From contig OY969811.1 in NCBI GenBank assembly GCA_963703315.1, forward strand, positions 4,160,001-4,224,000: a stretch of 64,000 nucleotides of DNA, in the 5' to 3' direction. Positions 8,401 through 29,140 of the stretch are shown in pieces. Position numbers and translations under genes: made by a program. The notes under the pieces are model-generated. The model was not told the DNA's origin. It was given only the letters and a program-made list of their open reading frames with translations, and made no database searches. Every line of letters begins with the position of its first letter. Within the stretch, counting starts at the first letter, position 1. The DNA comes from an uncultured cyanobacterium (GTDB lineage: Bacteria; Cyanobacteriota; Cyanobacteriia; Pseudanabaenales; Pseudanabaenaceae).

Positions 8401-8403
8401 ATT

Positions 8404-9858: not shown

Positions 9859-9881
9859 ATAGCATTTCACACGAGGTACAG

Positions 9882-9920
9882 AGGATTGTTTCCCCCGCCG
9901 AAGGCGGGGGAAACAATCCT
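9882..9920. repeat. Palindrome with a C-GAA-G apex between convergent genes; possible bidirectional terminator
   Basis: AGGATTGTTTCCCCCGCC GAA GGCGGGGGAAACAATCCT. Confidence 0.8.
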
Positions 9921-9936
9921 GCAAGTTGATATAGCT

Positions 9937-11304
9937 TTAAGCGCTAAATAATCCTAATGGCACTTGCTTTTCAGACGGAGAGAACCTCTTGCGAGAAATT
10001 AGAGACTCATACAGATAATGAATTTTTTCTGCAACTGCACTTTGACTATAGAGAGAATGCACTCGACGATAGCCTGAAGCTCCCATAGCTTGAGCCATTT
10101 GGGGATCTTCCAGTAACTTAGCGATCGCCTCAGCCAAAGCTTCTGGATCACGGATTGGCACTAATAAGCCAGTTAAACCATCTAGCACTGTTTCCTTCAA
10201 TCCACCGACTTTACTGGCAATTACAGGGGTTCCTGCTGCCATTGCCTCGATCGCCACTAACCCAAAAGGCTCATAATAGCTAGGAATCACACACATATCC
10301 GCCGCTGCATAGTAAGCAGGGATATCGGTTTGGTCGATCGCACCTGTAAAAGTGGCGATCGCATTTAAGCCCAGTTCATTCACTAAGCCACGAATGCGTT
10401 GTTGCTCTTCCGTATCGACACCACCTTGACGGCTACCACCAACAAAATAGATTTGGCATTGGTTTTTAAGTACCGATGGCAGTTGAGCGCAAGCTCTGAC
10501 TAAGGTTTCGATGCCCTTACGCTCATCAAAGCGACCTACATATAGAATCATTTTTGTGTTTTCGGCAATGCCCAACTGGTTGCGAGCAGAGGCTTGATCA
10601 ACTTGAGAGAAATGCTGAATATCGACACTGCAAGGAATGATCTGAATGTTGCCGTGCGGGGATACCAACTCACGAAGATCTTGCTGCTCTTGTAAACTAG
10701 TCGCAATCACACAGTCAGTCTGTTCTAGACAAGCCCATTCCACTCCTAAGCGCGAAAGTGCAATCTCTGGCAGTGGCTGATGATGATTCATCTCCTTGTA
10801 CTTAACGGCTCCCACCGAGTGATAAGTATGCACTTGAGGAATGTCCAGTCGCGATCGCAGTTGCATCCCAACCCATCCTGATAACCAATAATTAGAATGA
10901 ATCAGATTGTAAGTAAGTCTATTCTGCCGTTGAAAGTTGAGCCATGCTTCCACAAATGCGGGTAGATAGGGAAATAACTGGTCACGGTGAATAAATTCAG
11001 TAGGTCCAGCAGTGAGGCGGATTGTCCTACATCCATTGTTGTGTTGCACAATCTTAGGCTGTTCAGGATCTTCGCGACGGGTGAACATATCAACCTGACA
11101 GCCGCGTTTTGCTAGTGATAAGCCTAAAGATTTAACGTAGAGGTTTTGACCACCTGCACCATCCTTGCCAAGTTGGGCAGCAGGATCTCCATGTACTGAG
11201 ATTAGAGCATAACGATGTGGTGGGATAATTGGGATAGATAGACTTCGCTCTAAGATTTCAGTTTTCCATTTGGGCTGTGTAAATAGTTTGCTAGTCATAA
11301 TCAC
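9937..11304 (-). CDS. GT4 glycosyltransferase (single-domain SPS / MshA-like)
   Basis: ISVHGDP, AGGQNLYV, IHSNYWLSG, YVGRFDERKGIE and EPFGLVAIEAMAAG motifs; start may be the ATG at 11298. Confidence 0.85.
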   Translation of the reverse strand: MIMTSKLFTQPKWKTEILERSLSIPIIPPHRYALISVHGDPAAQLGKDGAGGQNLYVKSLGLSLAKRGCQVDMFTRREDPEQPKIVQHNNGCRTIRLTAGPTEFIHRDQLFPYLPAFVEAWLNFQRQNRLTYNLIHSNYWLSGWVGMQLRSRLDIPQVHTYHSVGAVKYKEMNHHQPLPEIALSRLGVEWACLEQTDCVIATSLQEQQDLRELVSPHGNIQIIPCSVDIQHFSQVDQASARNQLGIAENTKMILYVGRFDERKGIETLVRACAQLPSVLKNQCQIYFVGGSRQGGVDTEEQQRIRGLVNELGLNAIATFTGAIDQTDIPAYYAAADMCVIPSYYEPFGLVAIEAMAAGTPVIASKVGGLKETVLDGLTGLLVPIRDPEALAEAIAKLLEDPQMAQAMGASGYRRVHSLYSQSAVAEKIHYLYESLISRKRFSPSEKQVPLGLFSA

Positions 11305-12718: not shown

Positions 12719-15355
12719 ATGCCTAATCATAGTAAAAAAACTAACTCAAGGTCTTCATCCTATCGGTTGATAGCAGCGACATTGACAATGAGTGGGGTGT
12801 CATCTTTACTACCATACCTTGCGATCGCTCAAGTTGTGCCACCAACGCCAGCAGGTGTCCAAATCCTCAACCGTGCATCAGGTACTTATAGAGACCCAAA
12901 TAATCCTAATGACGAGATTAACGCCACTTCCAACACCGTCACCGTTACCGTCGCAGAGGTAGCAGGGATCACCAATGTGCCTGCGGGAATTATCGATGTC
13001 AACGGTGGTAGTGTATCCGTCAACGATGTAATTAACTTTGACTTTTTAGTTACGAATACAGGAAATGCTCCTACCAATATTGTTTTCCCCGCAATTGGTA
13101 ATATTACTACCCAAGGCTTAAACGCTGGTACATTGCAGTATCAATTAGACCTCAACAATGATGGAGATTTTCTTGATGCTGGTGAAGGCTTGCAGACAGG
13201 TACATTTACCACCACCACCCCAATTCCTGCGGGTAGCTCTGTGCGTGTCAGAGTTGTTGGCACAGTAACTGCCACAAACGCAGGTGATACCGTCAGTGTT
13301 CAACTAGGTAATACAGGATTAAATAACAACTCGGCTGGAACTCAAAATCAGCCAGACTCAGGGGCTGAGCCTCCTGCCGCAGGTGGTGAAGGTAGTAATG
13401 CTAATGAGGTTCGTACCGTCAACTTTGGTCCTGATTTACCCGTTAATGGTGAACGTGAAGCTTCAGCAATTCAATCAACGACAGTGGCTACGGCTGTTCG
13501 TAATATTGCCTTAGCCACTGTTCTAAAAACTAGAGCAGCTTACGATGCGGGGGTGGCAAATACAGTAGTAGATGATCGCCTCACCTATCGACTTAATTTA
13601 AGAGTTGCAGGGACATCTCCTGCTCCTGCCCAATTCACTCCAGCTAACCTCGAAGGAACTACAGTTAATGTTGATGGTTCTAGCGCAACTCCCCGCATCT
13701 TAATTTCTGACGTGATTCCCGCAGGAACCAGAATTGATGAAACATTTAATGCGGCTGCAAATTTACCTGCGGGTTGGCAAGCCGTCTATCAATATACTGG
13801 AACCGCCGCCGCTACTACACCTGTCGGCAGCGCTCCTCCAGCAGTAGCATGGTCAACTACCGCACCAACTGCTGGAACTGCACCAAATGTTGTCCGCGTT
13901 GGCTATATTTTTACAGGAACACTTGCTCCGGGCTTTAGTACTGAATTAGTTGCGAATGCTTTCCAATTCAGAGTGGTCACATCAGGATTGCCAGCTACAG
14001 GTGGGGTGATTAATAACATTGCTCAGGTATTTGGGGAAACCGTAGGCGATCCTACCAATCGCGTGGTCTATGACGAATCAGGCGACCAAAATCCCAATAA
14101 CTTTGAAGGAGCTACTCCGCCTGCTCCTGAAGGTACACTATATACACCTGCTACAGATACTGGTGTACCCGATCCTGCGGTACAAAATACTGACCCAAAT
14201 AACAACAACACAGGTACAGGACCTGGCGGGGAAGTCAACATTTTCCCAATTGTGCAAGCAGGTGGCATTCTGAATGGAACCAATAATGTTCCGGGGGCGA
14301 TCGGACGAAGTAATACCAACCAAGATGACTTTACTAACCGTTCTACACCTTTGATTGCCGCAGAATCAGTGCCTGGGCAAACAACTGCGTTTAATCCGCC
14401 ACCAATTATTTTTAACAACACCTTCCAAAACCCACCCAGCAACACGACTAACCTAGATACAGTAAGGTTGCTACCATTACCTCCTAATAATCCCTCTGTA
14501 CCTGGAGTGTCACAACAACCAGATGCAGACATTCCCATTGGTACAAGGGTGACAATTACTTTTGGTACACAGATCGCCGTGTATGACTATACAGCAGTAG
14601 GTGTTTATACCTTTAATGCAGGAGCAAGCTCTGGACTTCCTGTTGGTTCGACAAGCGTATTAGTCAATGGTTTAGCGCCCAACGTGCTGAATAACTATAC
14701 TGTCACGCTTGATTTGCCATCAGGTAATCAGAATACACTTCTATCTGTAGATCGTTTCTTGGCAAATGGAGCCGATCGTGCAGGTTTTAATGTACCGATT
14801 GTTGCTTTTGTGGATAACGACAATAATGGAGCCTTCGTTGCCGCGAATGATCCAATCTATAACATCACAATCGATCGCGGTTACACAGGTTATGTAAGGT
14901 TGCGGAAACAGTCTCAAGTCTTGCAAGGTACTAGTCCGCGCCCTGTCACTCCAGCCACAAATGGAGTGCTTGATGAAACGGCTAAGACCGCAGAACCGGG
15001 CAATATAATTCGCTATGTGATTGAGTACGTCAACTTCTCAACGCCTCTAACTGCGGCTGGTGCTGGTAGCGTAGTTCTAGATGCGGCAACCTTGGTGATT
15101 ACCGAAAATGGCGCAACTGCACCTAATAACTGGGCAGGCGTGTCATTACACTTTAACAATCCCGCCGTAGTTGGTGGATTTGCTCAAAATACTTTTGCTT
15201 CCCAAGGCACTGTTACTTTTAATGGCGCTGCAATCCCAGATCCAGCGACAGGAGCAGCTATCACGACTTATGTAAATAATGTCGGCACAATTCAGCCTGC
15301 AACAAATCCAGCCACCTTCCAAGGGTCTTTCCGTTTCCATCGTCAGTTGCAATAA
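12719..15355 (+). CDS. Secreted DUF11-type Ig-like repeat protein A (putative shaft subunit)
   Basis: Signal peptide (..LAIA/Q); N-terminal AGVQILNRASGTY..SNTVTVTV; internal VLKT..SDVIPAG..INNIA domain; C-terminal RLRKQ..PGNIIRYVIEYVN..FRFHRQLQ. Confidence 0.75.
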   Translation: MPNHSKKTNSRSSSYRLIAATLTMSGVSSLLPYLAIAQVVPPTPAGVQILNRASGTYRDPNNPNDEINATSNTVTVTVAEVAGITNVPAGIIDVNGGSVSVNDVINFDFLVTNTGNAPTNIVFPAIGNITTQGLNAGTLQYQLDLNNDGDFLDAGEGLQTGTFTTTTPIPAGSSVRVRVVGTVTATNAGDTVSVQLGNTGLNNNSAGTQNQPDSGAEPPAAGGEGSNANEVRTVNFGPDLPVNGEREASAIQSTTVATAVRNIALATVLKTRAAYDAGVANTVVDDRLTYRLNLRVAGTSPAPAQFTPANLEGTTVNVDGSSATPRILISDVIPAGTRIDETFNAAANLPAGWQAVYQYTGTAAATTPVGSAPPAVAWSTTAPTAGTAPNVVRVGYIFTGTLAPGFSTELVANAFQFRVVTSGLPATGGVINNIAQVFGETVGDPTNRVVYDESGDQNPNNFEGATPPAPEGTLYTPATDTGVPDPAVQNTDPNNNNTGTGPGGEVNIFPIVQAGGILNGTNNVPGAIGRSNTNQDDFTNRSTPLIAAESVPGQTTAFNPPPIIFNNTFQNPPSNTTNLDTVRLLPLPPNNPSVPGVSQQPDADIPIGTRVTITFGTQIAVYDYTAVGVYTFNAGASSGLPVGSTSVLVNGLAPNVLNNYTVTLDLPSGNQNTLLSVDRFLANGADRAGFNVPIVAFVDNDNNGAFVAANDPIYNITIDRGYTGYVRLRKQSQVLQGTSPRPVTPATNGVLDETAKTAEPGNIIRYVIEYVNFSTPLTAAGAGSVVLDAATLVITENGATAPNNWAGVSLHFNNPAVVGGFAQNTFASQGTVTFNGAAIPDPATGAAITTYVNNVGTIQPATNPATFQGSFRFHRQLQ

Positions 15356-15513
15356 CAATCCTAGTCTATCAGGATTTTCCAATGAGCATATACTCATTGG
15401 AAAATCCCCAAAGGTTGACTTAGCGAGGCTTTCGCCTTTTCAATTTACTAGACACAATTGAACAAGAATGCAAAACAGTCTAATTAAATTTTATTGAGGT
15501 TTTGGAATCAATC

Positions 15514-16095
15514 ATGAAAAAATTTGAAATTAAATCATTGTATCTAGCGGTTGGTGCGGTGGTGCTACCGATGTTGCTATTGTCTACCGCGATCGCTAGC
15601 AATACTAGTTCTACTAATTCTGCTGTTCAAGATCTACGAGTCGCCCAAAAACAGCAGCCTGTAGAATTATTACTAGCAGCCGAAAAGCGTCAAATCAGCC
15701 GTGATGAGTCAGGGAAAGACAAGATTTCTTGGAATGCACTTCCTTCTAATTCGCAAGTGATTCCCGGTAGTGTTTTGCGCTATACAGTAATTGCCAAAAA
15801 CAACACTAGTCGGAATATGCGTAACCTTACGGTAATTCAACCGATTCCTAATGGCATGGTGTACATCATTGCATCGGCAACTGCTTTAAATACATCAGGC
15901 GCTAAATTGGAATTTAGTATTGATGGCGGTAAAACTTTTAGCGTTAACCCAATTATTCGCGTGCGGGGTCGTGATGGCAAGATCGAAGAGCGTCCTGCTC
16001 CTGCTGATGCTTATACCCATGTGCGTTGGAACTTTGGGGAGAGTTTACCAGCAAATTCTCAGTTAACAGTTGCTTATCAGGTTCGCGTTAAGTAG
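15514..16095 (+). CDS. Small secreted single-DUF11 protein B
   Basis: Signal peptide; PGSVLRYTVIAKN, QPIPNGMVY, FSIDGGKTF, YTHVRW and terminal AYQVRVK. Confidence 0.8.
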   Translation: MKKFEIKSLYLAVGAVVLPMLLLSTAIASNTSSTNSAVQDLRVAQKQQPVELLLAAEKRQISRDESGKDKISWNALPSNSQVIPGSVLRYTVIAKNNTSRNMRNLTVIQPIPNGMVYIIASATALNTSGAKLEFSIDGGKTFSVNPIIRVRGRDGKIEERPAPADAYTHVRWNFGESLPANSQLTVAYQVRVK

Positions 16096-16140
16096 TTGAT
16101 GTAATGATGCACTGTGTCAAGCACAGTGCATCATTAACCA

Positions 16141-16176
16141 TGATTAAAACTGATTCATTGATTAAAACTGATTCAT
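16141..16176. repeat. Tandem 18-bp duplication, preceded by a palindrome at about 16102-16136
   Basis: TGATTAAAACTGATTCAT x2; TAATGATGCACTGTG..CACAGTGCATCATTA. Confidence 0.8.
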
Positions 16177-16208
16177 TCCGTTTGAATATCTAGAGTGATA
16201 GAACTTTG

Positions 16209-17711
16209 ATGAATATGCGATCGCTTAAAATAATAGTAAAGCGATATGCTTTCTTTTTCTGGCTGTGGCTGGGAAGTTTAGCGTTATGTCTTTGTCTGAT
16301 GAATAGTAGTGCTTACGGTCAAGCACGAAATTTTGAAGTGCGTAACCAAGCAAGTGGTAGCTATAACACTATAGGTGTAACTGATTCAGTTCAAACTTCT
16401 TCAACACAAACCAGTATTAATGGCGATCGCCTCATCGATCCTCTAGGTCAGATTCTCGATTGCGGAGGTAATGAGTTTGAGGATTACACTGGGTTTACGG
16501 TGGGATTATATCAAGCAGTTGGTAGCAATGGTGAAATTGGTGCTCCCATTGCTTTACCCCCAACCAATCCGCCAAACACGACTTCGCCGATAGGTATTGC
16601 TCCCAATATTGCCAACATTAATCCCTATGCAATCACTAATGTCGCAGTAAACGCTAGACGTGGTGTATATAACTTTCTGTTAAATACTAGTCAGACAACT
16701 TCAGGAAGTACCTACATCTTAGTTGTTAATCCACCTGCGAGCCTTGCTCTTGGACAGAGGCGCATTCGCATTGTCATTGGCACTCTTAATGGTATTCGTT
16801 TACCCTATACCGCAACAGCCGTAGATGGTAGACCAATTGGAGTGAACGGACTTTTTTCAGTTACTGATTCTGTCGTGGTTAACAATGCTGATGAAAATGC
16901 TTTATCCCTAGTTGCGATGCAACTGAATGCAGCTATATCTGTATGTGAAGCCCGCGAGATTCAAATTATCAAAACAGGCGATCGCGCTGCTGCTGAACCG
17001 GGAGATATTCCTTCCTATCGACTGACGATCAAAAATCTCACCAATACAACATTAAGCAATCTAGTGGCTACAGATTCTCTACCGATCGGATTGCGCTATG
17101 TGCAGAATTCCGCGAGAGCTTCTGTTAATGGCAACTTAGTTCCTGTTGCGGTTCAGGAAAATGGGAATAATTTAATCTTTGCGATCCAAGGACAAATACC
17201 TGCTGGAAAGGTAAGTGCTTTGGTTGCCTATGCGGTCACAGTCACTCCCGATGCCATCAGAGGGACTGGTAGGAATTCGGCTTCAGCCTCTGCCGTCAGA
17301 GTGGACAACAATTACACAGTTCGGGATGGTCCCGCTATTTTTACGATGCGAATTCGTCCTGGCATTGTTACTGATTGCGCTACTTTAATTGGCAGAGTCT
17401 TTGTAGATAAGAATTTTGATGGAGAGCAGCAGGATGGCGAACCGGGAGTTCCCAATGCTGTGGTGTTTATGGACGATGGTAATCGCATTGTTACCGATGC
17501 CAATGGATTATATTCTATTGCCAATGTGATTCCGGGCGATCGCACTGTGGTCTTAGATTTAAGTTCTTTGTCTGGATATACCTTAGCCCCCAACTTGTAC
17601 TTTATCGAACGAAACACTCAGTCTCGGCTGGTGCGTCTATCACCAGGTGGTTTAGCTAGGGCTAATTTTGCGGTAACTCCAACGTTTAGGGGTCTGGCAG
17701 GGCAACAATAA
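16209..17711 (+). CDS. Secreted DUF11 + SdrD-B-like protein C (putative base/adaptor)
   Basis: Signal peptide; VRNQASGSY; IIKTGDRAAAEPGD..TDSLPIG..GRNSASA; IGRVFVDKNFDGEQQDGEPGVP; its stop overlaps the next ATG (TAATG). Confidence 0.78.
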   Translation: MNMRSLKIIVKRYAFFFWLWLGSLALCLCLMNSSAYGQARNFEVRNQASGSYNTIGVTDSVQTSSTQTSINGDRLIDPLGQILDCGGNEFEDYTGFTVGLYQAVGSNGEIGAPIALPPTNPPNTTSPIGIAPNIANINPYAITNVAVNARRGVYNFLLNTSQTTSGSTYILVVNPPASLALGQRRIRIVIGTLNGIRLPYTATAVDGRPIGVNGLFSVTDSVVVNNADENALSLVAMQLNAAISVCEAREIQIIKTGDRAAAEPGDIPSYRLTIKNLTNTTLSNLVATDSLPIGLRYVQNSARASVNGNLVPVAVQENGNNLIFAIQGQIPAGKVSALVAYAVTVTPDAIRGTGRNSASASAVRVDNNYTVRDGPAIFTMRIRPGIVTDCATLIGRVFVDKNFDGEQQDGEPGVPNAVVFMDDGNRIVTDANGLYSIANVIPGDRTVVLDLSSLSGYTLAPNLYFIERNTQSRLVRLSPGGLARANFAVTPTFRGLAGQQ

Positions 17712-20700
17712 TGAAATATCTATTAAAAACCAATTTAAAGTCTCAATTGTGGTTACATTTACTTGGTTTTATCAGTTTGTGGCTAGGAATGACTGCATCT
17801 AGTGCGATCGCCTCCAACGCCATCAGCGATTCACAAGCATCTTCGCTTGCAACCGATCAACTATCTTTAACGCCAGATTCTCATCATGCCAATGCTGAGC
17901 CTACAGTACAAATCGCCGTCCAAACCACTCAACCAGAAAGTTCATCAAATCAACCACCAAATCAACCACCAAATCAACCACCAAATCAACCAGAGAATAA
18001 TGTAACATCACCGAAATTACCGACTGTAAACAAAGATCAATCTGCTTCGCAAGTCACCATTCTTTTTCCTGTGAACACATCCTTAATGGATGTACCTGCA
18101 ACTGCGGTGATCTTACGCATTCCCGTTGGCAGAGAAGTAGAACTATCAGTTAATGGTAGAAAGGTTAATCCTAATGCGATCGGTCGTTCTGAGGTGGACA
18201 CTAACGCGGGCGTCGTCACCCAAACTTGGTATGGTGTGACCCTAGATGAAGGTGAGAATAAAATTACCGCGAAGTTAGCTGGTAGTGATGCGAGTCAAAG
18301 TGTGATTGTGCGCCTGCGTAGTGCGGCTGCCAAAATTCAGGTCAGTACTCTAGAGTCAAGTATTCCTGCCGATGGTCGTACCACTGCGACAGTGCAGGGT
18401 TTACTGTTGGATGAAAAAGGCGATCGCTCTAATCGGAGTGCTTTTATCACACTCACTACCAGCGAAGGTGAGTTCATTGGCAATGATGCTCAGCCCGATC
18501 AACCCGGTTTTCAGGTAGAAGCAAGAGAAGGTAAATTTTCTGCAACCCTGCGTTCTGGACTCACTTCTGGCAATGTTCGTATTCGCGCTAGTTCCGTCAT
18601 TAATAATCGTGAGATTGAAGCCTTTACCCGAATTCAACTCGAAACTAATCTTCGTCCTTCGATCCTCACAGGAGTGGTTAGCTTACGGATAGGCGCAAGA
18701 GGAACTGATTACTATCGTAGTTTTCGTGATTTTCTGCCCACTGATGGCAATAACTCTAGCAATGTCGATTTTTATGCGGCGGCTTTTGGCACAGGTCGAG
18801 TTGGTGAGTGGTTAATCACAGGAGCATTTAATACCCGTCGGACTCTTAACGAAGATTGCGAAGGTAGAAGCCGTCTATTTCGAGATGTTCAATTTTGCCA
18901 GCAAGTCTATCCTGTCTATGGGGATAGTTCCACCTTAACCACTGAGACTCCTTCTCTAACTAGTGTGTTTTTACGAGCAGAGCGAACTTCTCCCGTTCCC
19001 AGAGCAGGTACTGATTTCTTGATGTGGGGAGATTTTCGCACTGAAGAATTTGCCAGTCGTTCTCAAGAGTTTACAGCATTTACTCGACAGTTAAATGGAT
19101 TGAAGTTTAACTATAATTTTGGCGACTTACAAGCCACAGGGTTGTATAGCAATAATACACGCGGATTTCAGCGCGATATTATTCCTCCCGATGGTACGAG
19201 TGGATTCTTTTTTCTCTCACGGCGGTTAGTCACCCCCGGTAGCGAAAATGTATTTGTGGAATCAGAAGAACTACTCCGTCCTGGTAATATTGTCCGCCGT
19301 GTCAAGCTCGATCGCAGTCAAGACTATGAGATTGATTACGATCGCGGTTCTCTGCAATTTCGTCAGCCAATCCTCCAAACAGATATCGGTACAGGTGGTG
19401 AAACCCTTGTGAGACGTATTATCGTTTCCTACGAATACGACAATGAAGGCGGCACTAGCAACGGTAGTAACAACAATAGTATTTATGCAGCCCAATTGCG
19501 CTATCACTTCAATCGCGAGATTGGGGCGGAAAGCTGGTTAGGAGCTAATTATTTTAAAGAAAATCAAGGAGCGCGGGACTTTCAACTCTATGGAGCTAAT
19601 GCTCTAATTTCCTTTGGCAAAAGTTCTTATATCATTGCCGAATATGCGCGATCGCAAAATAACTCCAGTGATTTACCCGCACCAGTTACAGGTTCGGCTT
19701 TTCGTTTTGAAGCCGTTAGCGAATTTATACAGGGAATTACGGCTAAGGCTTTCTATCGCCAAGCGGATACAGGCTTTGTGAATAATGCCACAATTAGCTT
19801 TGTACCCGGCCAGACAAGGTTGGGCGTTAGTCTGGATGCTAAGCTATCCGATGCTACTACACTCAGGGCAAGCTATGAGCGTGAAGAAAATCGCGGTATT
19901 GCCCCTCAACCATTTACGCTGACTAACTTTCTGGAGCTTAATCCTCAATCTCCAGCAGGAACTCCCGTTGACAATCGACTCAGCACTTTTACTGTGGGCT
20001 TCTTGCAAAAATTGGGGGCAGCCACTGCTGAACTTGATTTTCTGATGCGCGATCGCCAAGATAACTTAAACTCAACATTTTCTGGTGCTTCTAGTCAATT
20101 GCGATCGCGCTTCACCCTGCCAATTCTCGACAACTTAAAATTTATTGCTCAAAATGAGATCAGTCTATCGAATGCTCCTGATACTATTCTGCCCGATCGC
20201 ACAGCCCTAGTTTTAGATTGGCAAGTAATGGATGGTATTAGTTTGCGTCTAGGACAGCAGTGGTTTAGTAGTGGCGTACTTGCGGGTAGCACCTTTACTA
20301 CTGGGGAAGTTGTGGGCAATTACAAACTATTTCCTGACACCACACTTTTAGGACGATACACATTGGTGGGCGGCGCAAATACCACTAGCACCCAAGGAGC
20401 GATCGGCTTCAATCAACGCTGGGTAATTTCCCCCGGACTAAGAGTTGATTTTGGCTATGAAAGGATTTTTGGGAATGACCAAGTTAGAAATTCCGCAGGT
20501 GTTACGCAGGTGTTACAGCCTCTGACCACTGGCTCCAACACTTCTACCCTTGCACTTCAAAGTGGTGATAACTACAATATTGGCTTTGAATATACCGATA
20601 ATCCTGATTTTAAAGCAAGTGCGCGTTATGAATATCGCAACTCTTCGGCAGGGGCAAACTCAGTGATTAATGCCTCTGCGCTCGGTAAGATCACCCCTGC

Positions 20701-22699
20701 GCTCACAGGGCTATTGCGCTATCAGCGATCGGGTATTGCTAACCAAACGATCAATAATTTTGGTGATACCTCTAGTCTACGTTTGGGACTCGCCTATCGC
20801 GATCCTGCCAATGATGCGTTTAATGCCCTATTGCGCTATGAGTATCGCCAGAACCCTAGCATTATTCCTGAAAGCTTTATAGGAGGAATTGGTTCAGGAA
20901 CTGAAGAACAAGTCCTCGCTCTTGAAGCAATCTATTCACCAAACTGGCAATGGGAATTTTACGGAAAATATGCTCTTCGCAATAATACTTCTTACTTGGC
21001 GAAGGACTTAATTGGAACTTCGTCAATTAATTTGGCACAGCTACGAGCGACCTATCGCCTTGGCTATAACTTCGATCTCACGGCTGAAGGTAGAATGATC
21101 AACCAGCCCACAGCAGGATTTAATGAAGTTGGCTTTGTCGCGGAGCTAGGCTATTATGCTACACCCAACTTGCGCCTAGCTGCGGGCTATAGTTCGGGTA
21201 CGGTCAATAACGATCGCGACTTTAGTGGTACACGCTCAGCAGGTGGACTGTATGCAGCAATTACATTTAAACTCAATGAGCTATTTGATGGATTTGGGTT
21301 ACAAAAAATTGCACCACCACAGCAAAAGGAACCACTCGATCCTACTACTCCCATTGAGTTACCTAATGCTAAAAAATCTGGTGTGACAACGGCTGCGCTT
21401 CCTAGCAATATGTCTGAGGTGGTGAGAGTTTCCCTTGCTCAGACTGTGGAATTCCCCACGGCGCAAGTTGATTTATCACCTATTAACCAAGTGGTTTTAG
21501 ATAATTTGGTTACGGTCTTACGCGAATATCCTGCCCTGAATATTGATGTCCAAGGTCGTTTGGCATCGCTCACAGAAGTTACGACTAACAGTCCTGATGC
21601 TCAACGACTTGGTAAGGTGCGAGCGTACCTACTCAAGCGTGGGGTTGATGGTAGTCGGATTACCATGCGATCGCTTGGTGCTATAGAAACTGCCGATAAG
21701 CCTCAAGTTCTACTAGCCCTTGGTGGGACAAGAGAGACTTTTACGCAAATATCGAATCGGATCAAGGAGGGCAATGGCAGTAGCATTCTTCAGAATGTTT
21801 TGCCTAGTGACTTGTCCAATGTATCTTCTAATTCACCCATTGCGGCTGCACCTCTTCGAGTTCAAGCGATTTCACAACGGATTGAGTTTGCTCCTATTGG
21901 TAAAATGACTGATCCGAGCAATGCCAATTTGGATTTGTTAATCAGTCTGATTGTTGATACCCCAGAGGTTGTAATCGAGTTACAAGGTAATCTGGATGGC
22001 TCAGAACTTGAGGTCAATCGCTTGATGGGACTACGCAGTTATCTGCTGCAAAAGGGCATTGCTAGCGATCGCATTTTGATTAGTCCAGCCAATAGCAATA
22101 TTGCTAATAGTGATACCGCTAATAGCATTACACTCACCCTTGCAAACTTGGAAGGATTGCCGATCGCCCAATTGCCTAACGATTCTGCACCTGCGAAACC
22201 GATCGCCCAGCAAGGTAATGGTAATCGCCTGAGCTTAAATCTCCCGAATTTGGAAATAACGCCATCTTCTTTACTCAGTCAGCTTCTCGACTCTGAAAAC
22301 TATAGCCGTCAGGTTTTGGGATTATTGCCTAGTCCACAACTGCTAACGATGCTTTTAGAGCCACAAACTCAACCAACTCTGCTATCAACTAACTTCTCCA
22401 CGCTCCTATCGGGCTTCCCGTCACCTGAAAATGCACCGCGTTGGTCATCGATACCTGCAACCCAAATTTTATCTCTCCTATTGCCTGATCCAAATGCAGC
22501 ACCAGAGAGACAGCCAGACTTGATTGCCGAAGATTCTCAGCGTGACTTGAGTACTCGCCGCTTAGTATCAGCCTTGAACTTCCTGTTAAGTCGCGATCGC
22601 GATGTGCTGACAGCTTTGTTGCGATCGCTCAATGAGTCGCAACCTGAACTACGCGGCGAAGTCATCCGACCTGAATTATTTGAAGAGGGACAACCATGA
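17711..22699 (+). CDS. Large outer-membrane protein D: Ig/invasin-like domain (IPADGR), predicted beta-barrel and degenerate OmpA-like domains
   Basis: Signal peptide; YPVYGDSS and DYEIDYDRG motifs; long run of amphipathic aromatic-ended strands ending LYAAITFKL; two OmpA-like segments (VRAYLLKRGVDGSRI, LRSYLLQKGIASDRI). Confidence 0.72.
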   Translation: MKYLLKTNLKSQLWLHLLGFISLWLGMTASSAIASNAISDSQASSLATDQLSLTPDSHHANAEPTVQIAVQTTQPESSSNQPPNQPPNQPPNQPENNVTSPKLPTVNKDQSASQVTILFPVNTSLMDVPATAVILRIPVGREVELSVNGRKVNPNAIGRSEVDTNAGVVTQTWYGVTLDEGENKITAKLAGSDASQSVIVRLRSAAAKIQVSTLESSIPADGRTTATVQGLLLDEKGDRSNRSAFITLTTSEGEFIGNDAQPDQPGFQVEAREGKFSATLRSGLTSGNVRIRASSVINNREIEAFTRIQLETNLRPSILTGVVSLRIGARGTDYYRSFRDFLPTDGNNSSNVDFYAAAFGTGRVGEWLITGAFNTRRTLNEDCEGRSRLFRDVQFCQQVYPVYGDSSTLTTETPSLTSVFLRAERTSPVPRAGTDFLMWGDFRTEEFASRSQEFTAFTRQLNGLKFNYNFGDLQATGLYSNNTRGFQRDIIPPDGTSGFFFLSRRLVTPGSENVFVESEELLRPGNIVRRVKLDRSQDYEIDYDRGSLQFRQPILQTDIGTGGETLVRRIIVSYEYDNEGGTSNGSNNNSIYAAQLRYHFNREIGAESWLGANYFKENQGARDFQLYGANALISFGKSSYIIAEYARSQNNSSDLPAPVTGSAFRFEAVSEFIQGITAKAFYRQADTGFVNNATISFVPGQTRLGVSLDAKLSDATTLRASYEREENRGIAPQPFTLTNFLELNPQSPAGTPVDNRLSTFTVGFLQKLGAATAELDFLMRDRQDNLNSTFSGASSQLRSRFTLPILDNLKFIAQNEISLSNAPDTILPDRTALVLDWQVMDGISLRLGQQWFSSGVLAGSTFTTGEVVGNYKLFPDTTLLGRYTLVGGANTTSTQGAIGFNQRWVISPGLRVDFGYERIFGNDQVRNSAGVTQVLQPLTTGSNTSTLALQSGDNYNIGFEYTDNPDFKASARYEYRNSSAGANSVINASALGKITPALTGLLRYQRSGIANQTINNFGDTSSLRLGLAYRDPANDAFNALLRYEYRQNPSIIPESFIGGIGSGTEEQVLALEAIYSPNWQWEFYGKYALRNNTSYLAKDLIGTSSINLAQLRATYRLGYNFDLTAEGRMINQPTAGFNEVGFVAELGYYATPNLRLAAGYSSGTVNNDRDFSGTRSAGGLYAAITFKLNELFDGFGLQKIAPPQQKEPLDPTTPIELPNAKKSGVTTAALPSNMSEVVRVSLAQTVEFPTAQVDLSPINQVVLDNLVTVLREYPALNIDVQGRLASLTEVTTNSPDAQRLGKVRAYLLKRGVDGSRITMRSLGAIETADKPQVLLALGGTRETFTQISNRIKEGNGSSILQNVLPSDLSNVSSNSPIAAAPLRVQAISQRIEFAPIGKMTDPSNANLDLLISLIVDTPEVVIELQGNLDGSELEVNRLMGLRSYLLQKGIASDRILISPANSNIANSDTANSITLTLANLEGLPIAQLPNDSAPAKPIAQQGNGNRLSLNLPNLEITPSSLLSQLLDSENYSRQVLGLLPSPQLLTMLLEPQTQPTLLSTNFSTLLSGFPSPENAPRWSSIPATQILSLLLPDPNAAPERQPDLIAEDSQRDLSTRRLVSALNFLLSRDRDVLTALLRSLNESQPELRGEVIRPELFEEGQP

Positions 22700-22756
22700 A
22701 CCAAAGATTTACCCTCGTTATTTTAATGATGGCAGAGTTTCTAGCATTGTCTCTTA

Positions 22757-25700
22757 ATGAGCGATCGCTTATGTCAACGTAATCATCACCATAAACATCA
22801 CCATAAACATCCTCAGTACAACTTAGAAAGTCGAACATATATGAAAAGCAACGTTAAAGCCATAGTGCAGTCGATATTGCGCTTGGGTCGGAGAATACAG
22901 CGATCTTTTATTTTAATAGGACAACCATTAGGTCAAATTTTCCCGAACCGACAATATCGTTTGAGTGCGGTTTTATTTGGATTGTCTTTTCTCATGGCAT
23001 TGGGATTTTCGCTAACCAATCAACCCAATCCTGCCTATGCAGCAGCAGCAGTATCGAAAGTATTTGCGCCCAACGTAGTTAATCCTGGGGAAAAGTCTCG
23101 AGCCACCATCACAATTACAAATAACAATAATTTTGATCTAACCAATGCAGGTATTACTGATGCCATGCCTAGTGCAATCAAAATTTATAATCCCGCTAGT
23201 GCTACGACCACTTGCGGGGCTGGAATTGTCACAGCAACACCTGGTGGGAGTACTGTAACCTTAAGCAGTGGTACAGTCCCAGCCACCGTAGGAGCAACAA
23301 CTGGTACTTGTACGATTAGCTTTGATGTCTATTCCAATGCCTCTGGAACTACTCAAAATAGTAATATCCCCGCAGGTAGTTTAACGAATACTCAAAATGA
23401 TACTAACGGCAACCTTGACGTTACTTTAACCATTCGTCCCATTACCTACTCTTCCGTAACTGGATCTAAATCCTTCGCACCAGCTTCATTTGCTGCAACG
23501 GGATCTAGTACTGCCACCATTACCCTAACTAACCCTAATGCCGTAGCTATGGATGGGGCAACTTTAATTGATGACCTCAACTTAGTTGGCGCAGGTTTAA
23601 CCGTACAGGGTAGTCCTAGTTCTACTTGTTTAGGAACTAATGGCACTGTCAGTAATACTGCTACTACAGTCACATTAAATAATGGGCGCATTCCTGCTAA
23701 CAGTAGCTGTACAATCACCTTCAGTGTGACGGGGACAATTCCCGCTACCTACACTAATAGGATTCCCGCTAATGCTCTAAGTACGTTTCAAGGGGCAACT
23801 AATAATGCTCAATTCGAACAAAATGTAACTATTACCGAGCCTGTGTCCCTTGCAAAATCATTTTCTGTTAGTCCGATCAAGCAAGGAGATATCAGCCGCG
23901 CCACCGTCACCATCACCAACAACAGCACATCGCAACTTACAAATTTAACTGTCCCTGATAACCTTGCTAGTCCAGGTTCAGGACTACTATATCGCAGTGA
24001 CCTAGCCCCCTCAACAACCTGCACAGGCGGATCAGTAGCTGTTACTGGTGCTTCAGGCACAGCCGCAACGATCACCCTCCAGAATGCAACTCTAAACGCA
24101 GGGGCTTCTTGTGCCTTCAGTTTTGACGTGACCTCAAATAGCCTCGGTAATCGCACTAATACAGTTTTAGCAACTGCTGTTAATAACAATCTAGCTCTCA
24201 GACCAGTAAATAACGGCACGGCAACCCTCGTAGTCAATCCGTTGCTCACAATCAATAAGTCTTACAGCGCAACTGTGCCAAGCAGCAATACCACCGTATC
24301 TGTTGGTGAAACGACTAATCTCTTCATCGACATTACTAATCCCCCTACCAGTAATGTTGATCCCGTCAATATCACTAGTATGACCGATGCTTTTAATACC
24401 TCTGGACGAGTTGTTCTAGTCACTACAGGGGTTGGCGCGGGGACTTCAAGTTGCGGCGGCACAATTACTGGCACAAGTTCCAATGCCTTTACTTTTAGTG
24501 GTGGTGCGATCGCCAGAGGCGCAACCTGTAGACTCACAATTCCCATTCGTGGAAGTACTTCTGGCTCAACCACTAACGACATCCCTGCAAACAATATAAC
24601 CAGTACTCAAGGAGTAAGTAACGTTGCTTCCAACACTCCTACAATTACAGTTAACTCACCTTTCACAGTGCAGAAGGTATACGGAACTCCTGCCCCCAGA
24701 CAGGGTGATCCCACTTTACTGACTATTACCCTCAGAAATCGCAGTACTCTACCAGCAACAAACGTCAGCCTCACTGATACCTTAGACTCACGGTTACGGA
24801 TCGTCTCACCCGCAACACCTGGTTTGATTACTACTGGCGTAGTAACTGCCCCCGCTACCACCTGTGGTGGCATATTAACTGCTCCTCTGAATACTGGCGG
24901 TCCTACAATTTCTCTGACTGGCGGCACTATTCCCGCAGGGACAGCAAGCACTCCCACTTCTTGTACGATCACCTTCTATGTCCAGACTGATGTACTCCCC
25001 GTCGATGCGACAGTCCCACCCCTAGCAACCGCAGGTACATATCGCAACACAATTCCTTTAGCAACGACAACCGCCGACTATGGCAGTGGACCAAGCCCTG
25101 CTGTAGTGGAATCGGCTAACTCCAACCGCGCCGACCTAACACCAACAGGAGCGTTGGATATTAGCAATAAGCAGGTTGCTAACTCTCCCTACACCACTTT
25201 TGTCGGCAACGTTACAACCAACATTAATACTCCTATTGCGGTTCGAATCACTTTACGAAATAGATCAGCAAACTTAAATCTCGCAGGATTAAATTTGACT
25301 GACAGCTTTCCGACCGCAGCCAATGGTGGGGGATTTGTGTTGTATCGACCTGGTGCAGCACCTTTCGAGCCTAGCACTACCTGTAATTACTTGAGTACCC
25401 CCGTATTCACTGGTACTAATGGCGGCACGAGCTTGGCAATGGCATCGGGGGGATTACAGAGTGCCGCTTCTATTGGTGGTAACAGAACTTGTACGATTAC
25501 TTTTTATGTAATCGCTACCCAAGAAGGTGGGACTACAGGGACTGCTTATAACAATACGTTACCCATTGGCAGCGTCAAAGCCACCAACACTAGTGTGGTC
25601 ACAGGTCAAGCCGACAATATTTACAGTACTGATACTGCCCCCGATACGGCTTCAGCTACAGCCAACTCACCGCTAACCATTGGGAAAGCCTTCAGTGTCG

Positions 25701-28700
25701 CCAGTACTTCCATTAACACTAATGCCACAGCTACTATCACCTTAACCAACAACTATGCAGCTATCGCAGTAGCTCCCAACGCTAATAGTTTAACTAATCT
25801 AGGATTCACAGATACTTTACCTGCTAACCTCAGAGCCGTAGCAGGTACTACTGGAGGTACTTGTGTAACAGCCAGAGGCGGTACAGCAGACATCATCAAA
25901 GACGTTGCTCTTAATCAAGATCGCGTCACTTTGACTGGTACAACCCTCCCCCAAGGACAAAGCTGTACAGTCACCTTCACAGTCACATCTAGCAATGTTG
26001 CCGCTTTTACCAATACCATCAACCGCAGCACCGAAGTTACTAACGCTCAATCTTTACCAGCACAGGCAAATGCCACCGCCAATATTAGTTTTATTGCGGG
26101 TCTAAGTGTCACCAAAACCTTTGACAATCTGGCTTCGCAAACTATTCTTGCAGGGCAAACCTCAGTATTGAGAATCGCGATTAATAACACCAGTGGTCAA
26201 AACCTAGCCGCCGTTAGTCTAGATGATAATCTTCCTGCCAATGTCCTGATTGCCTCACCCGCCAATGCTTCGGCTACAGCCGCTTGTGGCTCACCCACCC
26301 TGACCGCAGATCCCAACACCAATCTTGTGCGGATCACCAATGCCTCAATTAACAATACTCAAACCTGTACGGTAGCGGTAACAGTCATTAGCAGCGTCAC
26401 CAGTACTGGCTATGTAAATACTATTCCTGCCAATGCCGTCAATACGGGAGTAGGCGTAACTAATACCAGCCCTGCCACAGCTACCCTAATTGTCACAAGT
26501 CCTCTAAGTATCACAAAATCCTTTAACTCTTCTACGATTGGAGGAAATGGAACTTCTACGGTTACATTGACCATTGCGAACCGATTCCCTGGAGTAGTAG
26601 ATTTCACCAGTACTCCTGTTGGTCTGACAGATACTTGGGCAGCAGCAAACATCCAAATTGCCAATCCTCCCAATGCTTCGACAACTTGTGCAGGTGGTAC
26701 GGTTAATGCGATCGCAGGTCAAAAGACTGTCACCTTAAGCGGTGGACAAATTCTGGCAGGCTCAGTAACTACTCCTAGCACTTGTTTAGTGCAGTTTGAT
26801 GTAGTTGCTACTGCGGCTACTCCCACTCCCTTCACAAATACAATTCCTGCTAACAACCTCAGTACAGTTCAAGGCTTTACCAATAGCACAGCCGCCACAG
26901 CTAACCTCACAATAACTAGCTATAACCTGATTGTTGGTAAATCCTTTAACCCATCGACCGTTGATGGTGGTACACCCACAGTTCTCAAAATTGATATTGA
27001 AAATCCTAGTACTGGTATTCCCCTCACTAACTTGAGATTTGTAGACAATATGCCTGCGGGGATGATTGTTTACTCAGTCCCCAATCCGATTGTGTCCGCG
27101 AACTGTCCAGGGGGTGTAGTCAGCGCGACCCCTGGGGCTGGAAGCTTTAGCTTTAGCGGTGGTTCTTTAGCTCCCAATCAAACCTGTACGATTACACTTA
27201 ATGTGACATCAGTACAGCAAGGAACTTTAACCAACTCGATTCCACCTTCTAACTTTGGTACTAATCAAGGCATTCTCACCAAGGAAGGTATTGGCTATCC
27301 ATCCACAGTGGCGGCTAACTTCTCTGTGTTGCCATCAGCAGAGTTTTCTAAAGAGTTTGATCTACCTAGTATTCCCCCTGGTGGTGTAAGCACACTAAAA
27401 ATTAGTGTGGCTAATACTGCCATTTCGGTCAATCTGACAGGAATGAATTTCCAAGACAATTTACCTACTGGTTTGATTGTTGCTCCTATTCCAAACATTC
27501 AGAATAATGGTTGTAATGGCACGATTACTGCTAATGCTGGCTCTAGCTTGATTCAGTTGGCAGGAGGTTCACTTCTTGCTAGTTCGAGTTGTTCAATTCA
27601 GGTAGATGTTACAGCCGCTAGTTCTGGTATATACAACAACACTATTCCTTCTGGCAATTTACAAACTACTCAGAACATTACCAATAAACAACCTGCAACT
27701 ACTTTATTCCCAGTACAGCCACAGCCCAATATTGCTAAGATTTTTAATCCTAGTACTTCACCTGTTGGTGGAACATCGCAAATGACAATTACAATTACCA
27801 ATCCGCATACGGCTGGTTTAGTAAATGTCAATCTCGATGACAATTTACCAGCTAACTTGGTCATTGCTCCGACAGCAGGAGCGACAACTACCTGCGGTGG
27901 TTCCCTTACTGCTGTAAGTAATACATCCCTAGTTCGATTGACTAACGGTAGTATCACCGCTAATAACAGTTGTACAATTCAAGTGAATGTGACTTCTGGA
28001 GTTGGTGGTAGCTATACAAATACGATTCCAGCTAGGGCTTTAACTTCATCAGTGGTCAATGGTGCGAATCCCCCAATACCAGGTCCTAGCAATGCAAATC
28101 CTGCGAGTGCTACGTTAGTTTTTGGAACAACTTCAATTAGTAAGTCATTTGCTCCTACCACGATTAGTCAGAATGGAATTTCTACGCTGACACTGCAACT
28201 GAACAACAACACTGGGGTGACGTTGACTTTGACAAGCGCCTTGGTGGATACCTTGCCCTCTAATGTATTAGTGGCAGCGACACCTAACATTGGCGGAACT
28301 TGCACAACTGCTAATGTGGTTGCTAATGCTAATGGCAATACCATTACTTACAACAATGGCTCAACAATCCCAAATGGAGGTTGTACGATCTCGGTACAGG
28401 TTACGTCGGCAACTAATGGAGTATATGTAAATACAATACCTGCCAATGGATTGCAGACCACAGGTGGTAACAACCCCTCCTCTGCTACTGCCTCGTTAAC
28501 AGTTCAAGGTGGAGCACCAAACGTGGTTTTGGTAAAACGAATCACGCGCATTAATGGTAATGATTTTAATGTTTACGAGAATGATCCCCTTACCACGAAT
28601 GATGACAATACGAACAACTGGCCGACACCTCTAAGTGATTCCCTAAGGGGTGTAATCTCGCAAACCAATGTTCGTCCGCAAGATGAGGTAGAGTACACGA

Positions 28701-29140
28701 TTTACTATCTCAATATTGGTTTAAATTATGCAGAGAGCTTAAGGATCTGTGACCCTGTGCCTACTAATACCAGCTATATCGCCAATGCTTTTAATGGCTC
28801 TACACCTACCGATGGTGGGTTGCCTGCGGATTTGGGTATTGCTTTACAAACAGGTACAACTGTAGCCGATCGCCGATTCCTCACGGGGATAAATGATGGC
28901 GATCGCGGTCGATATTACGATCCTCTATTGAGTGAAGTACCCGCAGGATTACCTCCAGAGCGCTGTGTTGATCCGAACAATACATCGGTGGCGATCTCTA
29001 GCAATCCCAATGGCATCGTGGCAGTTAATGTCACACGTACTACAGGTACGCCAACTTTTCCCTCGGTTCCCAATGCCACAGGTGCAGGTGTTCCACCTAG
29101 TTCCTATGGATTTGTGAGATTTAGAGTACGAGTACGTTAG
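22757..29140 (+). CDS. Giant secreted adhesin E: 13 Cys-paired DUF11-like Ig repeats plus a C-terminal DUF11-type domain
   Basis: Extended signal peptide ending PAYA/A; 13 repeats of K-x-F..T-I-T-x-x-N..D-x-L-P..C..C-T-I-x-F..N-T-I-P; ends FVRFRVRVR; start may be 22841. Confidence 0.8.
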   Translation: MSDRLCQRNHHHKHHHKHPQYNLESRTYMKSNVKAIVQSILRLGRRIQRSFILIGQPLGQIFPNRQYRLSAVLFGLSFLMALGFSLTNQPNPAYAAAAVSKVFAPNVVNPGEKSRATITITNNNNFDLTNAGITDAMPSAIKIYNPASATTTCGAGIVTATPGGSTVTLSSGTVPATVGATTGTCTISFDVYSNASGTTQNSNIPAGSLTNTQNDTNGNLDVTLTIRPITYSSVTGSKSFAPASFAATGSSTATITLTNPNAVAMDGATLIDDLNLVGAGLTVQGSPSSTCLGTNGTVSNTATTVTLNNGRIPANSSCTITFSVTGTIPATYTNRIPANALSTFQGATNNAQFEQNVTITEPVSLAKSFSVSPIKQGDISRATVTITNNSTSQLTNLTVPDNLASPGSGLLYRSDLAPSTTCTGGSVAVTGASGTAATITLQNATLNAGASCAFSFDVTSNSLGNRTNTVLATAVNNNLALRPVNNGTATLVVNPLLTINKSYSATVPSSNTTVSVGETTNLFIDITNPPTSNVDPVNITSMTDAFNTSGRVVLVTTGVGAGTSSCGGTITGTSSNAFTFSGGAIARGATCRLTIPIRGSTSGSTTNDIPANNITSTQGVSNVASNTPTITVNSPFTVQKVYGTPAPRQGDPTLLTITLRNRSTLPATNVSLTDTLDSRLRIVSPATPGLITTGVVTAPATTCGGILTAPLNTGGPTISLTGGTIPAGTASTPTSCTITFYVQTDVLPVDATVPPLATAGTYRNTIPLATTTADYGSGPSPAVVESANSNRADLTPTGALDISNKQVANSPYTTFVGNVTTNINTPIAVRITLRNRSANLNLAGLNLTDSFPTAANGGGFVLYRPGAAPFEPSTTCNYLSTPVFTGTNGGTSLAMASGGLQSAASIGGNRTCTITFYVIATQEGGTTGTAYNNTLPIGSVKATNTSVVTGQADNIYSTDTAPDTASATANSPLTIGKAFSVASTSINTNATATITLTNNYAAIAVAPNANSLTNLGFTDTLPANLRAVAGTTGGTCVTARGGTADIIKDVALNQDRVTLTGTTLPQGQSCTVTFTVTSSNVAAFTNTINRSTEVTNAQSLPAQANATANISFIAGLSVTKTFDNLASQTILAGQTSVLRIAINNTSGQNLAAVSLDDNLPANVLIASPANASATAACGSPTLTADPNTNLVRITNASINNTQTCTVAVTVISSVTSTGYVNTIPANAVNTGVGVTNTSPATATLIVTSPLSITKSFNSSTIGGNGTSTVTLTIANRFPGVVDFTSTPVGLTDTWAAANIQIANPPNASTTCAGGTVNAIAGQKTVTLSGGQILAGSVTTPSTCLVQFDVVATAATPTPFTNTIPANNLSTVQGFTNSTAATANLTITSYNLIVGKSFNPSTVDGGTPTVLKIDIENPSTGIPLTNLRFVDNMPAGMIVYSVPNPIVSANCPGGVVSATPGAGSFSFSGGSLAPNQTCTITLNVTSVQQGTLTNSIPPSNFGTNQGILTKEGIGYPSTVAANFSVLPSAEFSKEFDLPSIPPGGVSTLKISVANTAISVNLTGMNFQDNLPTGLIVAPIPNIQNNGCNGTITANAGSSLIQLAGGSLLASSSCSIQVDVTAASSGIYNNTIPSGNLQTTQNITNKQPATTLFPVQPQPNIAKIFNPSTSPVGGTSQMTITITNPHTAGLVNVNLDDNLPANLVIAPTAGATTTCGGSLTAVSNTSLVRLTNGSITANNSCTIQVNVTSGVGGSYTNTIPARALTSSVVNGANPPIPGPSNANPASATLVFGTTSISKSFAPTTISQNGISTLTLQLNNNTGVTLTLTSALVDTLPSNVLVAATPNIGGTCTTANVVANANGNTITYNNGSTIPNGGCTISVQVTSATNGVYVNTIPANGLQTTGGNNPSSATASLTVQGGAPNVVLVKRITRINGNDFNVYENDPLTTNDDNTNNWPTPLSDSLRGVISQTNVRPQDEVEYTIYYLNIGLNYAESLRICDPVPTNTSYIANAFNGSTPTDGGLPADLGIALQTGTTVADRRFLTGINDGDRGRYYDPLLSEVPAGLPPERCVDPNNTSVAISSNPNGIVAVNVTRTTGTPTFPSVPNATGAGVPPSSYGFVRFRVRVR

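Follow-up and report, generated by a model that had tools for sequence, protein, structure and literature searches.

A cyanobacterial operon for a putative anchoring and fibre system in which a CnaA-like isopeptide domain would be shared between proteins

The subject of this study is a run of five co-directional genes, here called A to E, which spans positions 12719-29140 (+ strand) of a 64,000-nucleotide stretch (hereafter, the window) of contig OY969811.1 from an uncultured cyanobacterium of the family Pseudanabaenaceae. We propose, with a probability of roughly 0.6, that this operon encodes an anchoring and fibre system based on a naturally split CnaA-like isopeptide domain (CLIPPER/DUF11-type), the Asn strand of which sits on one protein and the Lys and acid positions on another. 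Complementation in trans is probably at work in the system; a covalent Lys-Asn lock, inferred because the Lys-acid-Asn triad is conserved, is reasonably likely; and the odds of a true polymer of protein A fall slightly short of even. The initial annotation of the window had read these genes as a covalent fibre pathway, which holds as far as the conserved split, the tie of C to D and the absence of sortase and usher are concerned, but B did not prove to be a plain acceptor and the core of the system appears to be anchoring.

The proposed split isopeptide domain

Gene A (12719-15355, +) encodes 878 amino acids (aa) that comprise a signal peptide, a donor hairpin, four beta domains including DUF7925, and an acceptor end domain. 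Gene C (16206-17711, +; 501 aa), the candidate anchor, has a signal peptide, a donor hairpin, an unnamed beta domain, a complete DUF11 domain (residues 252-370), an SdrD_B-like domain (397-460) and a conserved tail, and is devoid of an open (acceptor) end domain. Gene E (22757-29140, +; 2127 aa), the candidate cargo or tip, lacks a donor and opens with the Lys strand of its first DUF7933 repeat straight after the signal peptide, followed by the rest of its 13 DUF7933 repeats, a DUF11 domain and an acceptor end domain.

Both donor hairpins lie directly after the signal peptide and consist of a strand of the form x-N-x-A-S-G-[ST]-Y and one further strand: residues 48-78 in A (ILNRASGTY...SNTVTVTV; 12860-12952, +; Asn51 codon at 12869) and residues 43-72 in C (FEVRNQASGSY...TQTSIN; 16332-16421, +; Asn47 codon at 16344). 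They are homologous to each other (profile comparison probability of 96.7%, E 4e-10). The end domains of A (residues ~714-878; 14858-15352, +) and E (residues 1918-2127; 28508-29137, +) are all-beta and keep the Lys strand and the acid position, i.e., Lys730 (14906) and Glu796 (ITENG, 15104) in A, and Lys1927 (28535) and Cys1998-Asp1999 (ICDPVP, 28748-28753; Asp1999 codon at 28751) in E, and the chain stops before an Asn strand (at FRFHRQLQ in A and YGFVRFRVRVR in E). Together with B, they end 2-3 residues past the F/Y-x-V/F-x-V/R strand, with FRFHRQLQ, AYQVRVK and FRVRVR as the last residues of A, B and E, respectively. On re-reading of the sequence, all codons and motifs named in the initial annotation (12869, 14906, 16344, 28535, ITENG, ICDPVP) were exact. 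Its description of A, B and E as ending without the Asn strand, and of A and C as beginning with an orphan one, holds and extends to their homologues, and the roles given to C (donor only), E (acceptor only) and A (both ends) are borne out by the sequence.

Conservation was counted in alignments of the A family (57 rows), the E-type end domain (19 rows) and the C donor (14 rows). In A, Asn51 is kept in 56/57 sequences, Lys730 in 57/57 and Glu or Asp at position 796 in 57/57; in the E-type end domain the Lys, the Asp and the Cys pair are each present in 19/19; and Asn47 of the C donor is found in 14/14. Among the best 120 of 1156 A homologues, which were the ones examined, 114 were near full length, and the donor motif was present in 110 of these by regular expression and in 111 by eye (the remainder look N-terminally cut), while the C-terminal motif occurred in 113, the lone exception appearing frameshifted. 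A scan of the whole 4.57-Mb genome (6347 open reading frames (ORFs) of at least 90 aa) matched the donor expression only in A, C and C2 (a C-type protein of a second locus described below), each time just after the signal peptide. E and E2 (the cargo of that second locus) were the sole hits of a hidden Markov model (HMM) built on the E-type end domain, and the C-terminal motif was confined to A, E and E2. This pattern exceeds chance.

Each internal domain (DUF7925 of A, DUF11 of C, DUF7933 of E) carries its Lys, acid and Asn together in a single uninterrupted fold, whereas A, B and E all end before the Asn strand of their terminal domain. With the donor Asn on one chain, Lys and acid on the acceptor chain, and all of them conserved, the triad is split between chains as it is in donor-strand-exchange-and-lock filaments.

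Predicted complex of the E end domain and the C hairpin

The E end domain (19-row alignment) was modelled together with C residues 39-78 (14 rows), a pair that is present in every locus. The interface score ipSAE reached a median of 0.69 (0.63, 0.69, 0.77), compared with 0.00 for the highest-scoring of three controls, the runs shared at least 64% of contacts, and the predicted local distance difference test score (pLDDT) of the partner was at least 52. The mark used for this score is reached by 116/157 solved pairs and by 2/215 mismatched pairs, counts that hold only roughly here since our own shallow alignments were used. In the model, strand 49-53 of the C donor is inserted, in antiparallel orientation, between strands 10-16 (Lys16) and 81-88 (Cys87-Asp88) of E, and Asn47 would be adjacent to the Lys and acid strands, as judged from the register of the listed contacts. 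Part of the score may stem from complete CnaA-like domains and Tag/Catcher pairs that the predictor had learned. The complex model supports binding of the C hairpin to the E end domain.

Barrel, candidate anchor and modular cargo in cyanobacteria

Gene D (17711-22699, +) encodes 1662 aa with a signal peptide, Ig-like N-terminal domains that include an Invasin_D3-like one (24.4 bits, cut-off 33), a very large beta-barrel (~residues 300-1200) and two OmpA-like peptidoglycan-binding domains (residues 1233-1330 and 1398-1455; sub-threshold, partial NCBIfam hits). The model of residues 300-1220 is all beta, with ~45 long strands, and a look-up in the ESM Atlas returned only unnamed 'outer membrane protein' clusters for the barrel. 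The stop codon of C overlaps the start codon of D (TAATG), which confirms the translational coupling of the two genes reported in the initial annotation, and in other lineages C and D are fused into one gene.

The E-type end domain (~180-220 residues; LVKRIT ... EYTIYFL ... CD..P ... SYGFVRFR..V at the very C-terminus) gave 435 matches at E up to 1e-5, the organism-named sources of which were all cyanobacteria, and it follows passengers as diverse as GEVED, lamin-tail, DUF6923, vWA, beta-helix and DUF11 repeats, i.e., it is a modular tag on many unrelated proteins. The genome itself contains a second, minimal copy of the system (L047, G000:C1:3370898-3381218, - strand), in which C2 bears a donor, the barrel protein D2 lacks OmpA domains, a further gene encodes a beta-helix/NosD-like protein of 730 aa with an OmpA domain at its C-terminus, and E2 is an acceptor-only cargo of 957 aa; homologues of A and B are absent from it.

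In a sample of sixteen 20-kb loci around D homologues, A-B-C-D occurred in that order in 12, where C almost always ran into D, and every one of the 16 loci contained at least one large downstream cargo in which this end domain follows a variable N-terminal portion. Three loci (L040, L044 and L045) had only C, D and cargo. In a locus from another class of the phylum (L046; G016:C1:970400-990300, 1971-10205) C and D are fused into a protein of 2744 aa that starts with a donor-like hairpin, has its C-like part separated from the barrel by three SLH domains, and is flanked by two cargo-like proteins with VVIFRVIVK and VNFRVKVD as their C-termini. Two cargo proteins of a further locus (L032) carry an A-type donor in addition to their E-type end domain. 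Among 301 genomes of the phylum, D homologues were detected in 44 (5 of these in another class) and the end domain in 40, all of which had D, compared with 0 of the 257 D-negative genomes; as related genomes do not count as independent, this is to be taken as a strong association rather than a formal test.

Because the end domain is modular on unrelated passengers and some loci contain only C, D and cargo, the core of the system appears to be anchoring, with the shaft formed by A as an add-on. The same observations bear on another explanation, according to which D recognizes the C-terminal domain as a tag for secretion or sorting, the Asn strands have some other role and no complementation between chains takes place. 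Both the spread of the domain over unrelated passengers (GEVED, lamin-tail, DUF6923, vWA, beta-helix) and its co-occurrence with D are what a sorting tag would produce. Such a tag leaves unexplained, however, that a CnaA-like domain with invariant Lys and Asp has no Asn strands and that an invariant Asn hairpin stands at the start of an anchor coupled or fused to D. Nor does it account for the predicted complex of E and C, and no known sorting domain was matched, Por_secre_tail giving no match up to an E-value of 1 on the end domains, nor on the whole proteins. We consider this explanation very unlikely in its exclusive form; a sorting function and complementation may both hold.

Still less credible is that the genes encode ordinary monomeric fibrillar adhesins beside an unrelated outer-membrane protein, the ends being divergent but complete domains. 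DUF11/CLIPPER proteins are described as monomeric fibrillar adhesins in PMC12617251, and Pfam names only internal complete domains in the operon. Against this, the ends are conserved across phyla, their motifs are exclusive within the genome, and the parts are linked by synteny, fusion and co-occurrence; the complex model is a further point against it.

Distribution beyond cyanobacteria

A barrel profile built from the trimmed alignment was searched against representative clusters, resulting in 3004 clusters at E up to 0.001 and 1060 at E up to 1e-30. Within the best 150 barrel matches, 62 are proteins of at least 1500 aa, several with the barrel at the C-terminus as in the L046 fusion, and a relaxed donor-like pattern was found in residues 15-110 of 42/62 of these long barrel proteins vs. 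386/6347 ORFs of the cyanobacterium's own genome. Named fused members belong to Candidatus Wallbacteria, Smithella, Acidobacteriota and Moraxella osloensis, and fusions from Acinetobacter were seen in loci; in an alignment of fused anchor-barrels from other phyla the donor Asn is invariant (15/15).

Gammaproteobacterial loci were retrieved by a search with a single fused protein, and those of M. osloensis (L049), Acinetobacter nectaris (L052) and A. rathckeae (L053) contain two to three both-ended proteins of ~890 aa, one acceptor-only protein of 1347-1487 aa, an A-like protein, a donor-only anchor fused to the barrel, and a B-like protein of 158-176 aa with Thr at the acid position.

Protein A as possible fibre subunit or adaptor

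The DUF7925 domain of A (Pfam, residues 265-462) is a complete CnaA-like isopeptide domain. The seed of this family is a Nostoc protein homologous to A (Q8YS00; Lys264/Asp326/Asn415), and PMC12617251 presents it as an intramolecular isopeptide domain. An AlphaFold2 model of A (57 homologues; mean pLDDT 84.8, predicted template modelling score (pTM) 0.65) resembles TTHA1873 at residues 79-256 (Z 7.5), CnaA-like pilin domains and the CLIPPER structure 9IFR at residues 260-512 (Z 7.9-8.4), and the PorA N-terminal domain at residues 516-725 (Z 10.0); the hairpin itself (residues 48-78) is absent from all Foldseek match rows of the whole A model.

How A takes part in the system is the point on which anchoring and polymerization diverge. 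If the system served anchoring only, A would either close on itself, as a circular permutation with a 650-residue insertion, or enter once as an adaptor, the only pair formed in trans would be that of the cargo end domain and the C hairpin, and the product would be a single long adhesin instead of a polymer. This fits the loci of C, D and cargo without A and B, both in the genome's second locus and in L040, L044 and L045. It also fits the monomer model, in which the A hairpin (strands 48-59 and 62-78) is placed with confidence (pLDDT 91-95, pTM 0.65) as it would be in a closed ring of domains; this placement is compatible with self-closure, and a monomer model cannot discriminate cis from trans for this hairpin. 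A self-closed A would, on the other hand, be left unattached, as it possesses no other anchoring device, and its triad is conserved as strongly as that of the E/C pair. Moreover, the Moraxellaceae loci, with two to three both-ended proteins and exactly one donor-only and one acceptor-only protein, have the pattern of an ordered chain, and the L032 cargo combines an A-type donor with an E-type end domain. We therefore regard a pure anchoring role as unlikely. A chain is favoured because A has no other means of attachment and because several both-ended paralogues accompany one donor-only and one acceptor-only protein in the Moraxellaceae.

Protein B

Gene B (15502-16095, +; likely start at ATG 15514) encodes 197 aa, i.e., a signal peptide and one DUF11-like domain ending in AYQVRVK. 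The protein had been annotated as another acceptor, and it does end before the Asn strand, but Gln113 (VIQPIP) occupies its acid position next to a preserved Lys62. In 13 B sequences, Lys occurred with Gln in 11 and Asp without Lys in 2, and the combination of Lys and acid was never found (0/13). As Lys and acid never occur together, B probably cannot lock covalently. The idea of B as simply another acceptor was thus rejected in favour of a non-covalent role, which also agrees with the Thr of the B-like Moraxellaceae proteins. B is present in 12/12 loci that have A and absent from the four loci without A and from the genome's second locus. We speculate that it could act as a non-covalent decoy acceptor, serving as a chaperone or cap for the hairpin of A.

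Proposed mechanism

After Sec export, for which all five proteins have a signal peptide (read by eye), the hairpin of one protein would complete the end domain of its outward neighbour, where a Lys-Asn isopeptide bond would probably form spontaneously, as the conservation of the triad suggests. The order of the putative chain would be E, then A (one or several copies), then C, with A and C each donating a hairpin to the protein before it, and C may also take cargo directly. The barrel of D would hold C, with D presumably tied to peptidoglycan by its OmpA-like domains. The minimal, ancestral unit would consist of anchor, barrel and one cargo.

SLH domains of diderm outer-membrane proteins (OmpM- and SlpA-type) bind the wall in the periplasm. 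The anchor body is most simply placed in the periplasm because the SLH domains of the L046 fusion precede the barrel and the OmpA-like domains of D follow it; given this domain order, the anchor end would face the periplasm. From a periplasmic anchor body, passage of the chain with the tip first and growth at the base would follow, a polarity like that of chaperone-usher pili. D is the only candidate pore, and it would be through D that the chain leaves the cell. A diderm pilus or display class of its own that spans phyla, comprising a giant usher-like barrel, complementation by hairpins in the periplasm, junctions sealed by spontaneous Lys-Asn bonds with bond irreversibility as the driver of ATP-free export, dead acceptor B as an 'inverse' chaperone keeping the hairpin of A until its transfer, and the end domain as a natural Tag/Catcher for the covalent mounting of any passenger, is a doubtful extension of this scheme.

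Several points weigh against the proposal, in addition to the limits of the complex and monomer models given above. Export through D is a pure inference. Confidence in the D model is middling (mean pLDDT 62.9, pTM 0.43), and its matches in the Protein Data Bank (PDB) are generic large barrels (SlpA, TonB-dependent receptors, LptD, MtrB) at TM ~0.2, which do not allow its assignment to a family. Four D-positive genomes (G128, G052, G076 and G094) have no detectable end domain. The donors could not be matched significantly to the last strands of complete DUF11 domains by profile comparison (E 0.35 and 0.41). The end domains of E and B score 19.4 and 23.2 bits against Pfam DUF11, under the cut-off of 24.6 and over profile positions 8-65 of 114 only, and that of A matches no Pfam family. 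The DUF11 label of the initial annotation is accordingly sub-threshold for E and B and absent for A, but it receives some backing from hhalign, in which the Asp of the complete DUF11 domain of C lines up with the acid position of each end domain (A, E and B), in local alignments only (probabilities of 63, 70 and 96%).

Genomic neighbourhood

The intergenic distances within the operon are 146 (A-B), 110 (B-C), -1 (C-D, the TAATG overlap) and 57 (D-E) bases. Genes for a GT4 glycosyltransferase and a PAP-fibrillin lie upstream and genes for a family-4 glycosyltransferase (Pfam Glycos_transf_4) and EF-Ts downstream, all of which are unrelated to the operon. A freshwater metatranscriptome (run X1) yielded 12 short contigs (158-255 nt, 95-100% alike) scattered over A-E (window 14053-23917), so a near-identical strain is present in that sample; for expression of the operon this is a weak hint, as the contigs may also stem from DNA carry-over.

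Elsewhere in the window, a CHASE3 histidine kinase and an OmpR-type regulator are encoded at 7714-9777, just upstream of the neighbourhood of the operon. A chemotaxis-like cluster (33574-45107, -) includes a CheR-TPR protein, a CheA-type hybrid kinase (Hpt, CheW and receiver domains) and a CHASE3 methyl-accepting chemotaxis protein (MCP). Adjacent genes for an NgoPII-type restriction endonuclease and a C-5 cytosine methyltransferase are located at 35196-37196 (-), with a Uma2-family gene nearby (32934-33518). A NACHT/STAND NTPase gene (1092 aa; 47964-51242, -), coinciding with a stretch of ~30% G+C (48001-50000), sits between the acetate kinase and phosphoketolase genes and is adjoined by a small nucleotidyltransferase gene (46932-47396); this stretch looks like an inserted defence-type island.

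Implications

If the proposal is correct, diderms from cyanobacteria to Moraxella and Acinetobacter would be able to attach large adhesins or fibres to the cell covalently and without an enzyme, a task so far ascribed to sortases in Gram-positives. The known pilus or secretion classes would be joined by one that has a barrel family of its own (the 3004 representative clusters), and the surface retention of hundreds of anchorless giants annotated as 'DUF11 domain-containing' would be accounted for. In applied terms, protein engineering would gain orthogonal Tag/Catcher pairs of natural origin, and the system would offer a point of access to surface display in production strains of cyanobacteria.

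Comparison with known systems

In the full-text literature, in which few subscription journals and no supplements were covered, we found no description of a CnaA-like domain split between chains or of this operon, in line with the initial annotation, which knew of none as a pilus pathway. The only paper found to name DUF7925, DUF7927 and DUF7933 is the Isopeptor survey (PMC12617251), which regards the proteins as monomeric and their bonds as intramolecular. The tafi paper matched only via 'DUF1102', and those on Litorilinea and PCC 11901 refer to other DUF11 proteins. The principle, donor-strand complementation followed by an isopeptide lock, is known, and the parts of the operon are without known homologues in pilus systems.

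Among the closest known systems are chaperone-usher pili (type 1/P: FimH/PapG, FimA/PapA, PapH, FimD/PapC, FimC/PapD), in which an N-terminal extension completes the Ig-like fold of the previous subunit, the tip has no donor, the last protein is a terminator or anchor, the operon encodes a barrel, export is by Sec and no ATP is used at the assembly site. The operon differs in having no usher or PapD homologue, with no match to Usher (PF00577) in D or anywhere in the 99.67% complete genome (the control search matched in E. coli), and none to the PapD-like chaperone (PF00345) in the operon or the genome. Its donor is a two-strand hairpin, its subunits are multidomain CnaA-like proteins of 500-2100 aa with a probable covalent Lys-Asn lock, its barrel is far larger and bears peptidoglycan-binding domains, and its candidate chaperone B would accept a strand and not donate one.

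Donor-strand insertion followed by a spontaneous Asn-Lys bond has been described for the archaeal threads of Sulfolobus (PMC9715654) and for BsaA of Clostridium perfringens, a member of the TasA family (PMC11580942). In these filaments, as reported, an N-terminal Asn strand enters the neighbour that holds Lys and acid, and the intermolecular isopeptide bond is independent of sortase, as predicted here. Those proteins have another fold and family (no Pfam or NCBIfam match to TasA/BsaA or threads was obtained for A-E) and form single-domain homopolymers in monoderms or archaea with no outer-membrane part, whereas the operon would join heterologous partners in diderms through a modular cargo tag and a barrel anchor.

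The complete CLIPPER/DUF11, DUF7925 and DUF7933 domains (PMC12617251; PDB 9IFR) belong to the same superfamily and share the Lys-Asp-Asn chemistry, the DUF7925 of A and the DUF7933 repeats of E being complete members. That paper deals with intramolecular bonds in monomers; in the terminal domains of the operon, by contrast, the Asn strands are missing and are found on a different chain.

Sortase-assembled pili of Gram-positives likewise consist of CnaA/CnaB pilins, with covalent links between subunits and with tip, shaft and base in one operon. No sortase (PF04203) was matched in the genome and no LPXTG motif was present at the ends of A-E, all five of which end directly after a beta strand, consistent with the sortase independence postulated at the outset; the link would be autocatalytic within the shared domain, and the host is a diderm.

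The type IX secretion system (T9SS) resembles the operon in its modular C-terminal beta-sandwich tag, which leads diverse cargo to covalent surface attachment, and type V pili of Bacteroidota do so in combining strand exchange with a basal anchor protein. Neither has homologous components matched here, and the operon contains no protease or sortase-like enzyme. The inverse autotransporters of the invasin-intimin family have Big_1/Invasin_D3 domains and a 12-stranded barrel; D shows the sub-threshold Invasin_D3 similarity, and its barrel model has ~45 strands and resembles only generic large barrels.

In engineered split isopeptide pairs (isopeptag/pilin-C, SpyTag/SpyCatcher, SnoopTag/SnoopCatcher), a short tag restores the fold of its partner and bonds to it covalently. 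The principle of the domain cut is the same; those pairs are laboratory constructs, whereas the operon would represent a natural and conserved use of it.

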